Source: Escherichia coli
Lineage (GTDB): Bacteria > Pseudomonadota > Gammaproteobacteria > Enterobacterales > Enterobacteriaceae
Assembly (NCBI RefSeq): GCF_003334355.1
Contig: NZ_QOWP01000049.1
DNA length: 16,645 bases
Strand: one strand, 5' to 3'
Shown piece after piece: positions 8,857 through 15,060 of this stretch. A model generated the notes under the pieces. That model was given only the letters and a program-made list of their open reading frames with translations, was not told the origin of the DNA and did not search any database. Made by a program: the position numbers and the translations under genes. The stretch's first letter is position 1, and each line of letters opens with the position of its first letter.

Positions 8857-10518
8857 CCGAATGAACGAATAAAGGGAGCGAAAGCTCCCTTTATTATTGT
8901 TAGCAAAGTGTGCTTCGTTCATTCCTGAAAAATAATTAAAATCCAATATATTGCAGTGGTGTAGGCATGATAAGACGCGCCAGCGTCGCATCAGGCAAAG
9001 ACAAATCGCGCCTGACTTACCTTCTTCTTCCCCCAGCAAACTCCCCAACATCCCGCGTACAATCTGATTCGTCACCTGGCGGGCGGCGCTTTTCGCCATT
9101 GTTTGCACCACACCATCTTTCTTCCCGCCGCGTGGTCCGGTAGTGCCAAACAAAATATCCTTCAATCCACCAAGAATGCCGTCATCCACCGCCACCTCTT
9201 TCCCTTTCACGGCAGGATTATTTTGCTGCTCGGCGCTTGCCTGTACGCCTTTTTGCAACATCTCATAGGCGGATTCCCGGTCCACGTCATCCTCGTACTT
9301 GCCATACACCGGAGAGTGATTAATCAAGCCATTACGCTCATCTTCCGTCACCGGTCCCATCCGCGAACAAGGCGCAATCACCATCGCCCGTTCCACCACA
9401 GAAGGGCTTCCTTTCGCATCCAGAAAAGAGATCAACGCCTCGCCGGTGCCCAGTTCCTGAATCGCCTTTTCGGTATCAAATGCCGGATTGACCCGCATGG
9501 TTTGCGCCGCAGCTTTTACCGCTTTCTGATCTTTGGGCGTAAAAGTCCGCAAAGCGTGTTGAACGCGATTACCGAGCTGGCCGAGCACGTTATCCGGAAT
9601 ATCGGACGGATTTTGCGAAACGAACCAGACGCCCACGCCTTTTGAGCGAATAAGCCTTATCACCTGCTCAATCTTATCCAGCAGTACCTGCGGTGCATCG
9701 TTAAACAGCAGATGTGCCTCGTCGAAGAAAAACACCAGTTTTGGTTTCTCCAGATCGCCCGCTTCCGGCAATTGTTCATACAACTCCGAGAGCATCCACA
9801 ACAGGCTGGCGGCATACAGTTTCGGCATCTGATAAAGCTTCTCGGCGCTGAGGATATTGATAACGCCTTTACCGTTGGCATCGGTGCGCATCCAGTCTTT
9901 GATATCCAGCATCGGCTCACCAAAGAAGTGTGCTGCGCCTTGCTGTTCCAGCGACAACAGCCCGCGCTGGATGGCACCAACCGATGCGCTACTGATATTT
10001 CCGTACTGATTCTGGAAAGATTTGGCGTTATCGCCGATGTACTGGGTAATCGCCCGCAAATCTTTAAAGTCGAGCAGTAACAGCCCCTGATCGTCAGCAA
10101 TGCGGAAGATGATATTCAGCACGCCAGACTGCACATCGTTGAGATTCAACAGCCGCGCCAGCAACAGCGGCCCCAGATCCGAAACCGTCGCCCGCACCGG
10201 ATGGCCTTTCTCGCCAAAGATATCCCACACCACCACCGGATTGGCATGCGGTTGCCAGTCATTGACGCCGATATTTTTAAGCCTTGTGAGCAGTTTTTCC
10301 GACGCCGTTCCTGCCTGCGCGATACCGGTCAGATCGCCTTTCACATCAGCCATAAACACCGGCACGCCGATTTCCGACAATGACTCTGCCAGTTTTTGCA
10401 GCGTAACGGTTTTACCCGTCCCCGTTGCGCCAGTAATCAGCCCGTGACGGTTAGCCATTCCCGGCAGTAAAAACAGTTCTGTGTCCGGCGTGCGGGCAAT
10501 TAACAGGGGTTCGCTCAT
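8839..10518 (-). CDS. yjgR: YjgR-type P-loop ATPase; ORF in this sequence is 559 codons, about 59 longer than expected
   Basis: ATG at 10518 with GGAGG RBS; Walker A GATGTGKT near the N-terminus. The ORF continues through the REP element and the lptG terminator hairpin and overlaps lptG by 18 nt; the last ~59 codons are probably read-through. Confidence 0.85.
8871..8895. terminator. Intrinsic terminator hairpin downstream of lptG
   Basis: AAAGGGAGC-GAAA-GCTCCCTTT stem-loop at 8871-8892 followed by T-rich ATTATTGTT, 15 nt after the lptG stop. Confidence 0.55.
8961..8996. repeat. REP element
   Basis: GTAGGCATGATAAGACGCGCCAGCGTCGCATCAGGC is the reverse complement of the same REP consensus seen in the 4571-4894 array. 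Confidence 0.65.
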
Positions 10519-10617
10519 GAGATTTCCTCCAGTTTCCTGCCTGGAGTATAGGCAACGGCTGTGCACTCTTCACCGCTAAATTCAGCAGATTGCGAGACGC
10601 CTTCCAAAGAGATTTAA

Positions 10618-10644
10618 GTGCCGGGCGACAGGCACCCGGCAAAG
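10618..10644 (-). terminator. Candidate ahr terminator hairpin
   Basis: Inverted repeat TGCCGGG...CCCGGCA just downstream of the ahr stop on the minus strand, followed by a modest U-rich tract. Confidence 0.3.
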
Positions 10645-10647
10645 GGA

Positions 10648-11667
10648 TCAGAAGTCGGCTTTCAGGACCACGCGGTAGCGCGCTTTACCATCGCGTACAT
10701 GCTGGATGGCGTCGTTAATTTTCGACATCGGGAACAGTTCGGTGGTCGGCGCAACCTTGCTGCGGGCGGCAAAACGCATCAGCTTACGCAGCTCATAAGG
10801 CGTGCCGGTAGCAGAACCAGAGATGCTGCGGTCGCCCGCAATTAACGTAAAGGCCGGAACAGACAGCGGCGTGAGAACCGCACCGACCGTATGGAAATTA
10901 CCGCCATAGGTCAGCGCCTCAAAATAAGGCTGCCAGTCGAGGCTGACGTTCACAGTATTGATAATGAGATCAAACTGCCCCGACAGGGCTTTCAGTGCCT
11001 GCGGATCGCGGCTATTCACCACTTTATCGGCACCCATCGCCAGTACTTCCTGCTCTTTCGCCGGATTAGAACTAAAGGCCGTCACCTCGCATCCCATTGC
11101 GTGCAGAAGTTTTATAGCGATATGCCCCAGCCCGCCAATACCAATTACCCCAACGCGGCTGGTAGCAGTGATATGGTGCATCAACAGTGGTTTAAAGACC
11201 GTGATACCGCCGCACAACAGCGGCCCGGCGGACTCGATATCAATATTTTCTGGCAGTGGAATCACCCATTGCCAGTCCGCACGCAACTTCTCGGCAAAGC
11301 CACCGCGATTCATAATCGTCGGCACCGCACCTTGCTCGCAGTTGATCTGATTACCGCTAATACAGGCGTCGCAGTGACCACAGCTACGCGCCGTCCAGCC
11401 AATCCCGACACGCTGACCGACCTGCAAACCTTTATCCTGCGCGGCGCTCCCGAGTGCCACCACGCGCCCAATCACCTCATGCCCGGCAACCAGCGGATAT
11501 TGTGAAAATCCCCATTCGTTATCGATCATCGACAGATCGGAATGACAAATCCCGCAGTAATCCACCTGCACTTCAACATCTTGTGGCTTCAGCTCACCGG
11601 GATCGTACTCATAAACTTCCAGTTCGCCGCCCGCTTCTTTTGCGGCATAGCTTTTTATCATCGACAT
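10648..11667 (-). CDS. ahr: NADPH-dependent aldehyde reductase Ahr (YjgB), Zn-dependent alcohol dehydrogenase family, 339 aa
   Basis: ATG at 11667 ([14 protein letters not shown]) with GAAGGA RBS; zinc-ligand region GHEVIGRV and Rossmann [10 protein letters not shown] motif. The track ORF is 14 codons longer from an upstream ATG without RBS. Confidence 0.9.
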
Positions 11668-11862: not shown

Positions 11863-11947
11863 GCCGAAGTGGCGAAATCGGTAGACGCAGTTGATTCAAA
11901 ATCAACCGTAGAAATACGTGCCGGTTCGAGTCCGGCCTTCGGCACCA
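11863..11947 (+). tRNA. leuX: tRNA-Leu (anticodon CAA), 85 nt, type II tRNA with long variable arm, encoded CCA
   Basis: Acceptor stem GCCGAAG/CTTCGGC, anticodon loop TTCAAAA, T-loop GGTTCGAGTCC, 3' ACCA. Confidence 0.95.
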
Positions 11948-11960
11948 AAAGTATGTAAAT

Positions 11961-11984
11961 AGACCTCAACTGAGGTCTTTTTTT
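11961..11984 (+). terminator. Intrinsic terminator of leuX
   Basis: AGACCTCA-AC-TGAGGTCT hairpin immediately followed by a 7-T run. Confidence 0.75.
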
Positions 11985-12060
11985 ATGTCTGAAATCCAGT
12001 ATTTATCTACCTTTCCCGCTATATTAACTCTCTCAAGGTCAACCCATATCAACGTACATC

Positions 12061-12120
12061 TACCAACACATGTTGGTACAGATGATGGTATTTCCGGTTC
12101 GATAATGCTTGTACCAACAG
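12061..12120. promoter_or_regulatory. Repeated TACCAACA motifs upstream of the integrase gene (candidate operator or integrase/Xis binding sites)
   Basis: TACCAACA at 12061-12068, its reverse complement TGTTGGTA at 12071-12078 (palindrome with 2-bp spacer), and a third copy at 12112-12119, just 5' of the int RBS. Confidence 0.3.
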
Positions 12121-12133
12121 GGAGGGAATACGC

Positions 12134-13399
12134 ATGGCATTAACAGATATCAAAGTCAGAACAGCCAAGCCAACAGATAAGCAATATAAGCTGACTGATG
12201 GTGGCGGTATGCATCTGCTTGTCCATCCAAATGGTTCTAAGTACTGGCGTTTGCAGTACCGTTATGAGGGAAAGCAAAAGATGTTGGCACTTGGGGTTTA
12301 TCCTGAAATCACACTAGCGGATGCCAGAGTACGCCGTGACGAGGCGCGTAAGCTGCTTGCGAATGGAGTCGATCCGGGAGACAAAAAGAAAAATGATAAG
12401 GTTGAACAGAGTAAAGCACGAACCTTTAAAGAAGTCGCGATCGAGTGGCATAGCACCAATAAAAAGTGGTCTGAAGATCACGCCCATCGTGTGCTAAAAA
12501 GTCTGGAAGATAATCTTTTTGCAGCGCTTGGTGAACGTAATATCGCTGAGTTAAAAACTCGAGATTTATTAGCACCCATTAAGGCCGTGGAGATCTCTGG
12601 ACGTCTTGAAGTGGCAGCTCGTCTTCAACAGCGCACTACAGCCATCATGCGCTATGCAGTACAAAGTGGGTTAATTGATTATAACCCGGCACAAGAGATG
12701 GCTGGGGCGGTTGCTTCCTGTAATCGACAACATCGTCCGGCGCTTGAATTAAAGCGCATCCCTGAGTTGCTTACAAAAATAGATAGCTATACTGGTAGGC
12801 CGCTAACCCGATGGGCGACAGAACTCACTTTGCTGATCTTTATTCGGTCCAGTGAGCTGCGTTTTGCTCGCTGGTCAGAGATCGATTTCGAAGCGTCTAT
12901 ATGGACTATCCCACCGGAGCGGGAGCCTATTCCTGGAGTGAAGCATTCCCATAGAGGCTCAAAAATGCGTACAACGCATCTAGTGCCTCTTTCAACGCAA
13001 GCCCTTGCAATTTTAAAGCAGATAAAACAGTTTTGTGGGTCTCATGACTTGATATTTATTGGTGATCACGATTCGCACAAGCCTATGAGTGAAAATACGG
13101 TAAATAGTGCGTTACGGGTCATGGGGTATGATACAAAAGTTGAGGTTTGTGGTCATGGCTTCCGCACAATGGCCTGTAGTTCATTGATCGAATCAGGTTT
13201 GTGGTCTCGTGATGCTGTTGAACGTCAGATGAGCCACATGGAGCGAAATTCAGTGAGGGCCGCGTATATCCATAAAGCAGAACATCTGGAAGAACGGCGA
13301 TTGATGTTGCAATGGTGGGCCGATTTTCTTGATGCGAACCGGGAGAAGGGTATCAGTCCGTTTGAATACGCAAATGTTAACAATCCGCTGAGAAGGTGA
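12134..13399 (+). CDS. P4-type tyrosine recombinase / integrase, 421 aa, apparently intact
   Basis: Full-length ORF immediately 3' of a tRNA gene; GGAGGG RBS 7 nt before the ATG; sequence resembles P4-family integrases from memory; visibly lower GC than the core genes. Confidence 0.9.
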   Translation: MALTDIKVRTAKPTDKQYKLTDGGGMHLLVHPNGSKYWRLQYRYEGKQKMLALGVYPEITLADARVRRDEARKLLANGVDPGDKKKNDKVEQSKARTFKEVAIEWHSTNKKWSEDHAHRVLKSLEDNLFAALGERNIAELKTRDLLAPIKAVEISGRLEVAARLQQRTTAIMRYAVQSGLIDYNPAQEMAGAVASCNRQHRPALELKRIPELLTKIDSYTGRPLTRWATELTLLIFIRSSELRFARWSEIDFEASIWTIPPEREPIPGVKHSHRGSKMRTTHLVPLSTQALAILKQIKQFCGSHDLIFIGDHDSHKPMSENTVNSALRVMGYDTKVEVCGHGFRTMACSSLIESGLWSRDAVERQMSHMERNSVRAAYIHKAEHLEERRLMLQWWADFLDANREKGISPFEYANVNNPLRR

Positions 13400-13618: not shown

Positions 13619-13951
13619 ATGATTGACATAGTTTCCCAAACGGAAAAATCACTTCCCTTCTTGGAAGAAAATCTGCGAGCACATATAAAATGGAAACAGC
13701 ACGGCGGCCCTTGTGAAATCCCCAATGGCCTGGCGTTTTGCGCAATTCACCATAAAGTCTTTGATAAAGGATCGATTGGTCTGGATGAAAATATGCGGGT
13801 ACTGGTCTCGGATGTGGTAAACGGCGGAGGGATCGTTGAGAGATTATTCTGGGATTTTGACGGGAAAACTATTGCGTTGCCACAGGTGCGTAAAAATTAC
13901 CCTTTTGAGGGGGTTGTGGAGTGGCATCGGAAAGAGGTTTTTAGGGGGTGA
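13619..13951 (+). CDS. Small ORF (110 aa) carrying only an HNH-type nuclease core; probably a 5'-truncated remnant
   Basis: Motif HGG...PNGLAFCAIHHKVFDKG resembles the C-terminal HNH core (NGLxLCxxHHxxFDxG) of larger HNH endonucleases. An in-frame TAG sits immediately before the ATG and the RBS is weak. Confidence 0.4.
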   Translation: MIDIVSQTEKSLPFLEENLRAHIKWKQHGGPCEIPNGLAFCAIHHKVFDKGSIGLDENMRVLVSDVVNGGGIVERLFWDFDGKTIALPQVRKNYPFEGVVEWHRKEVFRG

Positions 13952-14061: not shown

Positions 14062-15060
14062 TTACTGTTCAGCTTTTTCAACAACAAAACCATTTTGCCG
14101 TACAAACTCAATCAAGAGTTCAATATTAACAATGCCCCATTGATTAGAAATAGCAACAATTTCACCAGAAGGAAGTGTAATCAACGCATCTTCATTAATA
14201 TGATAGCGACTCTTTTGCTTCTCTGGTATCTGATCGACAAGCATAACCGTCCGTTTTTTAAAGTCTTCACTTAACCCATTTATTAAATCATTATAACTTG
14301 CAGGATTAAATTGATTTATCCAATCGCGTAATAATTCAAGCGCTAATTTACGCTTATTAAGTTCTTTATCTTTATATATATACCACGTATAGTCCTTCTC
14401 TTTTTTCTGACTGCTAATTAGCTGCTCATCACGTTTTTCACGAAATTTAACTTGATATTCTTCCAATTCAGGAACCGGTATGATTTGCTCTGCATTGATC
14501 AGAACATCATCATTAAATCTATAAGGCGTCAGACGAACACATCGAATGTCTACCCCCTTATCTCTTAACCAAATCGCAGTGGTAGTCAGTTCCTTGCTAA
14601 AATCCGATGAAGCCAAAACAATTCTGATATCTTTTCCGAAATCAACAAGCTCAGTTTCATCCAGCTCAACAAATTCAAGTATTTTTTCTTTCGCATCGGC
14701 ATCGCAGTTTTGTTTTTTCAAATACGTCTGGAAATATTCACATGCTTTCGCAAAACTCATTGTGGAAATCATCGCTGCATATCGTAGTGCCTGTAACTCC
14801 ATATGCGCACCAGTTTCATCACGTTTTAATTCGATAACCACTAAATTTGCCTGTTTATCGATTGCCAATAAATCAATTCGCCGACGGCTATCTTCCCAGT
14901 CAGAAAACTCTTCGGAAATCACCAGACAATCAGGAGCAATAATATCTATGTTTTTTTTGATTGCTTCCTGTAAATCATAACGTTCCTGTAATCCTTCCAG
15001 AGTAAAGGTCGTTTTTTCTAAAGCATGTAGTTCTTTATTTGCGATATTGTACAGCGCCAC
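14062..15060 (-). CDS. Uncharacterised protein with N-terminal RecB-like PD-(D/E)xK nuclease motif, 332 aa (GTG start)
   Basis: Uninterrupted 332-codon ORF with AGGAAG RBS; very AT-rich. Residues 61-94 RIDLLAIDKQANLVVIELKRDETGAHMELQALRY give D-x(n)-ExK plus QxxxY. The C-terminal ~200 aa has no motif I recognise. Confidence 0.75.
   Translation of the reverse strand: MALYNIANKELHALEKTTFTLEGLQERYDLQEAIKKNIDIIAPDCLVISEEFSDWEDSRRRIDLLAIDKQANLVVIELKRDETGAHMELQALRYAAMISTMSFAKACEYFQTYLKKQNCDADAKEKILEFVELDETELVDFGKDIRIVLASSDFSKELTTTAIWLRDKGVDIRCVRLTPYRFNDDVLINAEQIIPVPELEEYQVKFREKRDEQLISSQKKEKDYTWYIYKDKELNKRKLALELLRDWINQFNPASYNDLINGLSEDFKKRTVMLVDQIPEKQKSRYHINEDALITLPSGEIVAISNQWGIVNIELLIEFVRQNGFVVEKAEQ

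Follow-up and report, generated by a model that had tools for sequence, protein, structure and literature searches.

Organization of the leuX–int junction

The window, i.e., the whole stretch of 16,645 nucleotides analysed here, carries the tRNA-Leu(CAA) gene leuX, the target of integration, at positions 11863 to 11947 (+ strand; called by ARAGORN and matched by the tRNA-Leu annotation in matching E. coli genomes), and, 186 bp further and in the same orientation, the gene int (12134 to 13399, +), whose open reading frame encodes a P4-family tyrosine integrase of 421 amino acids. The 3' end of leuX (11928 to 11947, +; GAGTCCGGCCTTCGGCACCA) is an exact match to the annotated 20-bp attP core of phage P4 and makes up the attL core or crossover region, which is repeated in degenerate form at the distal end of the island in strains A3 and 536. 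An intrinsic terminator of leuX, located by a terminator scan at 11961 to 11985 (+), falls on the island side of the junction, and other P' arms either keep such a terminator or have an equivalent hairpin in its place. It is followed by a weak candidate IHF-like site, AATCCAGTATTTA (11993 to 12005, +; 8/9 to WATCAANNNNTTR in a consensus scan), placed between the core and the repeats described below; comparable 8/9 IHF-like sites separate arm repeats and core in the P arm of A3 and in P4 attP. The interval between leuX and int contains the whole P' arm, and the window holds the attL side only.

The integrase has an N-terminal arm-binding domain, as it matches Pfam Arm-DNA-bind_3 (PF13356) over residues 3 to 87 (E 2.4e-28) along with Phage_int_M and Phage_integrase, and the PDB arm-domain structures 3ju0 (E 3e-38) and 3jtz/3rmp (E 7e-23). 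Its identity is 58% to Int of phage P4 and 97% to the integrase of PAI II536, which excises its 100-kb island and reintegrates specifically at leuX (PMC3202238). Of 5426 complete E. coli genomes, 3023 had the leuX–int junction region, K-12-like and B strains among them, and the best match to the window was strain A3, with the same BREX island and an identical integrase protein.

In order, this part of the window holds leuX, the P4-family int, two features located between int and brxA, and the BREX-1 operon. The first of the two (13619 to 13951, +) is a restriction-enzyme fragment covering the C-terminal part of a phosphorothioated-DNA-binding endonuclease, which matches NF045808 at profile positions 196 to 284 only (E 2e-37), and the second (14062 to 15060, −) encodes an intact protein of 332 aa that weakly resembles NucS/Cas4-like nucleases. 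Elsewhere in the window, at 10566 to 10648, yjgR is joined directly to ahr: the window and A3 both lack the five-gene idn (L-idonate) operon that separates these two genes in HS30-1, 536 and K-12-like strains.

Repeated motif upstream of int

An earlier note on this DNA had pointed to three copies of a motif just upstream of the integrase gene, and a sequence search of the window located exact copies of TACCAACA at 12061 to 12068 (+), 12071 to 12078 (− strand, i.e., TGTTGGTA on the + strand) and 12112 to 12119 (+). The trio spans 59 bp between leuX and the int start, and these three are the only exact copies in the 16,645 bp, where 0.41 would be expected by chance; three or more copies anywhere were seen in 2 of 200 shuffled windows. 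A fourth copy with one mismatch, TGATGGTA (12083 to 12090), follows 12 bp after the second. The repeat unit measures 9-10 nt, since TGTTGGTACA at 12071 to 12080 returns as a perfect reverse complement at 12110 to 12119.

We refer to the four copies as P'0 (12061 to 12068, −; an exact copy reading TGTTGGTA on the − strand), P'1 (TGTTGGTAC, 12071 to 12079, +), P'2 (TGATGGTAT, 12083 to 12091, +; a one-mismatch copy) and P'3 (12111 to 12119, −; GTACCAACA on the + strand). P'1 and P'2 form a tandem pair with a 12-bp period, P'1 and P'3 a perfect 10-nt inverted repeat. The box GGTTCGAT (12096 to 12103, +) is placed between P'2 and P'3, and P'3 abuts a Shine-Dalgarno sequence read as GGGAGGG (12120 to 12126, +), 7 nt before the ATG at 12134. 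On the + strand the order is thus CATC TACCAACA CA TGTTGGTAC AGA TGATGGTAT TTCC GGTTCGAT AATGCTT GTACCAACA GGGAGGG AATACGC ATG. The copy at 12112 had been described as direct, which is true relative to the leftmost copy only; relative to the tandem pair at 12071 and 12083 it is inverted.

An unbiased layout search (a pair of 9-mers at a 12-bp period, followed downstream by an inverted copy; maximum score 27) gave 23/27 in the 130 bp upstream of int, a value equalled in 1 of 2000 shuffles and in none of the 126 other 130-bp tiles of the window. As so few shuffles and no other tile reach such values, the observation is real, and chance is excluded as the source of the repeats.

In a K-12-like strain (locus L199, 1680 to 1745) all four motif copies are kept and one nucleotide is deleted just before the int ATG; RefSeq places the start of the K-12-like integrase ~56 nt further downstream, so the arm-binding domain of K-12 IntB may be truncated.

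Homology with the attachment site of phage P4

The P4 record (NC_001609/X51522) annotates six "attP arm sequence repeat" features around a 20-bp core identical to the leuX 3' end; the P4 arm repeats were described by Pierson & Kahn (1987), as cited in PMC7286903. In an alignment with P4, window positions 12071 to 12079, 12083 to 12091 and 12111 to 12119 fall on the three annotated arm repeats that adjoin P4 int, with P'1 on TTGGGGGCATAA and P'2 on TTGGGGGCATCT, the tandem repeats, and P'3 on the inverted ATGTGCCCCCAA. Upstream of other leuX integrases, these alignment columns are occupied by TGCGGGTAC, TGCGGGTAT and GTACCCACA.

The correspondence goes beyond the repeats themselves. Both elements use the leuX 3' end as a target with an identical 20-bp core and have homologous integrases (58% identity, as above), both have tandem repeats of 12-bp period ~55 bp left of the core and two tandem plus one inverted repeat ~113-123 bp right of it, directly upstream of int, and the −10 annotated in P4 is located at the junction of the two tandem repeats. 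They differ in the sequence of the repeat (TGGGGGCAT in P4 vs TG(T/A)TGGTA(C/T) in the window), in P'0, an additional inverted copy that the window lineage has and P4 does not, and in a further annotated repeat inside P4 int that has no counterpart in the window. A near copy inside the window int, TGTTGGCA (12282 to 12289), was considered as the counterpart of this sixth P4 repeat and rejected: its codon position differs, one-mismatch copies occur at chance frequency in the window (12 seen vs 10.7 expected), and lineages with other motifs likewise keep the KMLALG that it encodes.

The distal island end

Occurrence of the same motif near the distal end of the island had been suggested as a check in the earlier note, and it was found: in strains A3 and 536, two tandem copies of TGTTGGTAT are located 56-59 bp before the duplicated tRNA core. 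In A3, the BREX island ends with TGTTGGTATctgTGTTGGTAT, 56 bp and then GAGTCCGGCCTTCGCACCA (pair at 10080 to 10100 and second core at 10157 to 10175 of locus L198), the corresponding spacing in P4 being 54 bp, and the same arrangement closes PAI II536 (locus L197, 27319 to 27338). Throughout 96.5 kb of A3, tandem motif pairs are confined to the int-proximal and the distal pair. The distal P-arm region was present in 1682 of the 5426 E. coli genomes.

The distal core of A3 is immediately followed by a P4-type int that has GGGGGCA sites of its own, and one viral contig contains a sibling element with TGAGTATA sites upstream of int and the same pair at its far end. The motif therefore follows the integrase and not the locus and, as judged from these sequences, is part of the integrase module rather than of the chromosomal site. 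The leuX gene of A3 (locus L198, 9960 to 11604) is in fact occupied by two tandem islands, each with its own arm motif, i.e., the BREX-1 island with the window-type integrase and then a second one in which HamA-domain and DEAD/DEAH helicase genes (Hachiman-like) come after the P4-type integrase.

Viral contigs yielded little when scanned for the distal arm: there was no match for TGGTA-N40-70-full core, mostly chance matches for the too degenerate TGTTGGTANNNNTGNTGGTA and almost only chance matches for TGGTA-N40-70-GTCCGGCCTTCG. A remnant in strain 0H15 that was examined as a distal arm is a second core plus a decayed P' arm without int. In A3 and 536, GGTTCGAT also occurs ~22 bp before the distal tandem pair, an occurrence given no weight because this 8-mer is frequent in E. 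coli DNA (3 per 16.6 kb).

Some further features of the distal end are worth recording. An IHF-like site between the distal pair and the core is conserved across genera, e.g., AATCATGAGGTTA in A3 (locus L198, 10132 to 10144), and was seen in the distal arms of L204, L232, L293, L300, L250 and L290 (as a perfect WATCAANNNNTTR in the last two), a position that fits a predicted IHF bend in the P arm. Nearly all of the secondary cores seen (compared at L198 10157 to 10175, L007 1478 to 1497 and, near 9790 to 9815, L010, L011, L013, L020, L029 and L033) share the same one-base deletion (CCTTCGCACCA vs CCTTCGGCACCA), strain 536 having CCTTCGACCACA; the deletion may mark the inherited side of the crossover or be a shared ancestral defect. 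The distal arm of E. coli 536 also turned up, identical over the ~80 nt inspected, in a 5.5-kb contig labelled "uncultured Streptococcus sp." (L248), a label that probably reflects contamination or mis-binning.

Putative arm motifs across integrase lineages

Comparison of 28 relatives from viral contigs, together with 16 int-upstream loci that were analysed automatically, showed that the layout is kept across lineages. Two 9-mers at a 12-bp period, a gap of 18-23 bp and an inverted copy were recovered automatically in 16/16 loci, and the distance between P'1 and P'2 was 12 bp in every one of them. The 9-mer, by contrast, differs by integrase lineage, with all copies changing together: five motif types (TGTTGGTA, TGCGGGTA, TGAGTATA, TGCTGGTAA and TGGGGGCA) occupy identical positions in different lineages, and the inverted copy agrees with its own tandem copies at a mean of 7.9/9 positions, as compared to 5.8/9 with those of other lineages. 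Targets of the surveyed lineages include tRNA-Leu, tRNA-Asn, other tRNA genes and ssrA. Arm-domain residues also differ with motif type, and these differences fit the lineages and are inseparable from phylogeny. The 80-bp arm as a whole hardly varies between genera in the window-type lineage, and conservation inside this lineage therefore does not set the motifs apart from their surroundings.

The gap between the tandem pair and the inverted copy carries a TTCGAT-like box (the core of GGTTCGAT in the window), intact in most lineages and degenerate in L015 and L030. TTCGAT forms invariant columns in six aligned int-upstream regions, that of P4 included, while the arm motifs around it differ, and it resembles the T-loop sequence of tRNA; a part of the 5' UTR, a host-factor site and a pseudo-core site are all candidate roles. 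In one genome (L319, around 824) three tandem copies are present (TGTTGGTACAGA twice, then TGATGGTAT); exactly one 12-bp unit is duplicated, in line with a modular 12-bp spacing of the sites.

Species-representative genomes were also scanned with a pattern covering both arm versions. Among the first 121 matches, which were classified, 51 were tandem pairs 0-120 nt upstream of a homologous integrase (26-96% identity), 9 more had an inverted copy, 16 were distal-arm-like (AT-rich, with an IHF-like site) and 45 were other sequences. An independent example comes from a Gammaproteobacteria MAG, in which a 10.8-kb element (L214, on a contig of ~11 kb) is complete at tRNA-Leu(GAG), flanked by a 26-nt direct repeat of that gene, and has the same tandem pair on both arms although its Int is only 43% identical to that of the window.

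A motif of essentially this sequence has been defined in a rather distant system. According to PMC11963761 (and Verdonk et al. 2019 cited there), IntS of the Mesorhizobium element ICEMlSymR7A recognizes five arm motifs with the consensus TGKTGGTATC, each of them necessary for integration, and negatively regulates its own promoter PintS. Compared by eye, P'0, P'1, P'2 and P'3 each match this consensus at 8/10 positions, and the A3 distal copies TGTTGGTATC and TGTTGGTATA at 10/10 and 9/10, respectively. Five sites are present there vs five or six here, and in both cases they extend directly upstream of the integrase gene; the differences lie in the distant host, the 500-kb symbiosis ICE and an RDF gene (RdfS) located far from int. 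The alphaproteobacterial integrases that we found with the motif are ~30% identical to the window Int, and the comparison with R7A is one of motif consensus only. Among the papers covered by a literature search, the motif returned unrelated primers only and no mention tied to E. coli leuX islands.

It could be argued that the tandem repeats are instead the sites of a recombination directionality factor (RDF, a Vis/AlpA-type excisionase) that bends attL and attR for excision and may modulate int expression. RDF sites are typically direct repeats with a spacing near one helical turn (PMC7498355), and the period in the window is 12 bp; in ICEMlSymR7A, the 40 bp bound by RdfS overlap arm site P3 directly before intS (PMC11963761), and a helix-turn-helix protein of 68 aa from the A3 island matches an excisionase domain weakly and below threshold. 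However, the window contains no RDF gene, and the consensus that our copies fit is assigned in ICEMlSymR7A to IntS and not to RdfS (PMC11963761). Excisionase sites are unlikely because the motif is found on both arms and also inverted, as integrase arm sites are, tracks the integrase lineage across unrelated cargo (BREX vs the pap/hly genes of PAI II536) and is common to elements with integrases of no more than 26-43% identity.

Predicted position of the int promoter and probable autorepression

A consensus sigma-70 scan from leuX to int found no promoter, so that an int promoter can be proposed by homology only, i.e., by carrying over through alignment the −35 and −10 annotated for P4 in X05947. 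This procedure, together with hexamer tables anchored on P'1, puts a candidate −35 (CGTACA) at 12053 to 12058 (+) and, after an 18-nt spacer, a weak candidate −10 (TACAGA) at 12077 to 12082 (+), the same position as the P4 −10 CATAAT. Both hexamers are poor, and much better ones are read at the same positions in other lineages after anchoring on P'1 (TATAAT and TACAAT for the −10, CTGACA for the −35). In the predicted promoter, P'0 would lie in the spacer, the −10 would fall on the junction of P'1 and P'2, and P'3 would abut the Shine-Dalgarno sequence. Weak hexamers and a scan without a promoter agree with the almost undetectable signal of the PintII reporter in strain 536 (PMC7286903).

Given that the P' sites overlap the position of the P4 int promoter, it is likely, by analogy, that the integrase represses its own gene through them. 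P4 Int represses Pint by binding DNA near the transcription start (Piazzolla 2006, as cited in PMC2951348 and PMC7286903), and KplE1 IntS (PMC2951348) and PAI I536 IntI (PMC7286903) likewise repress their own promoters. The latter two, i.e., KplE1 IntS at argW (Panis et al. 2010, PMC2951348) and PAI I536 IntI (PMC7286903), resemble the window in having a tRNA gene followed by int in the same orientation, and their arm-type sites lie over a negatively autoregulated int promoter, to which the site layout in the window appears comparable; the integrases and the motifs, on the other hand, are different.

The same position invites the idea that the palindrome TACCAACA-CA-TGTTGGTA (12061 to 12078) is the operator of a separate dimeric repressor of int, the other copies being incidental. 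The palindrome, which the earlier note had pointed out, is perfect (8 + 8), it lies in the presumed promoter spacer, and both of its half-sites are conserved in many Enterobacterales genera, the first central base varying. Nevertheless, it is not the basic unit of the arrangement: its left half is confined to this integrase sub-lineage, being absent from every other integrase lineage even though the tandem-plus-inverted layout is kept, and absent also from the TGTTGGTA-type sub-lineages of Providencia, Erwinia/Pantoea, a Burkholderiaceae MAG and L214. Neither the distal-end copies nor P'3 are palindromic, no candidate repressor gene accompanies the module, and two integrase N-terminal domains bound head to head would explain the palindrome equally well. 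We consider a dedicated operator very unlikely, and P'0 is best seen, from its sequence and distribution, as an added inverted arm site.

Proposed arm-type sites of a P4-family integrase

We propose that the repeats upstream of int are arm-type sites on the P' arm (attL side) at which the P4-family integrase encoded by the island itself would bind, a reading to which we assign a probability of roughly 0.87. The earlier note had already named arm-type sites among its possibilities, and this is the one favoured by the homology with the P4 attP arm repeats, the tandem pair at the distal end, the Arm-DNA-bind_3 domain and the fit to the IntS consensus. In this model, the N-terminal Arm-DNA-bind_3 domain would bind the 9-10-bp sites TG(T/A)TGGTA(C/T), i.e., P'1 (12071), P'2 (12083), the inverted P'3 (12111) and the lineage-specific, inverted P'0 (12061) in the window, and the tandem P1 and P2 at the far island end, ~56 bp before the duplicated core, while the C-terminal domains of Int would bind and cut the core at the leuX 3' end. 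Integrase and host bending proteins would then bridge arms and core into integration or excision complexes, for which the sites would presumably be required, and Int bound over the promoter position would repress its own gene. Together, P1, P2 and P'1 to P'3 would make up the 2 + 3 set that is typical for heterobivalent integrases, with P'0 as a lineage-specific extra site.

Lambda Int, with its heterobivalent intasome, acts on the arm-type sites P1, P2 and P'1 to P'3. The predicted arrangement resembles it in having two P-arm and three P'-arm sites distinct from the core, an N-terminal arm-binding domain, and IHF-type sites between arm and core; it differs in an unrelated motif and arm-domain subfamily (DUF4102/Arm-DNA-bind_3 in the window) and in the location of int, which in the window adjoins attL with its promoter overlapping the arm and in lambda does not.

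One could also regard these as genuine arm-site sequences that are by now functionless relics in a fixed island and are kept through the recent arrival of the module. Many leuX islands are indeed decayed: the distal end of HS30-1 was lost to IS1, 0H15 has kept only a remnant of the arm and lacks int, the int start of K-12-like strains is altered, and the weak promoter hexamers and the hardly detectable PintII reporter (PMC7286903) would also suit an inactive element. In the window, however, the int ORF is intact, its product shares 97% identity with an enzyme for which excision and reintegration of a 100-kb island have been shown (PMC3202238), and the closest genome, A3, has both arms and both cores. 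We regard loss of function as the least probable of the alternatives, and it concerns the present activity of the sites, not their identity as integrase arm sites.

The motifs are most likely integrase arm-type sites, a standard component of the well-known integration of islands at tRNA genes, and no new principle is involved, as the architecture follows phage P4 and the motif was already defined experimentally in a rhizobial ICE. They are the likely integrase-docking sites of a module that more than half of the surveyed complete E. coli genomes have at leuX, that includes PAI II536 and K-12 KpLE2 (intB), and that carries a BREX-1 defence island in the window. The geometry of the sites gives exact island boundaries and a quick check for both arms, and thus for the possible mobility of leuX islands, and their positions are precise mutagenesis targets for studies of island stability.

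A more speculative possibility, which we regard as rather doubtful, is that P4-family integrases sharing the leuX core with re-specified pairs of arm site and arm domain (TGTTGGTA, TGCGGGTA, TGAGTATA, TGGGGGCA) constitute an orthogonality code, with the P'0 palindrome as a recently evolved, operator-like site that tightens autorepression. If so, defence islands could stack at one tRNA gene and be excised singly, each integrase assembling on its own arms only. In a small and non-independent sample, all of the tandem junctions seen (A3, L010, L011, L013, L020/L029 and L033) join neighbours with different arm motifs.
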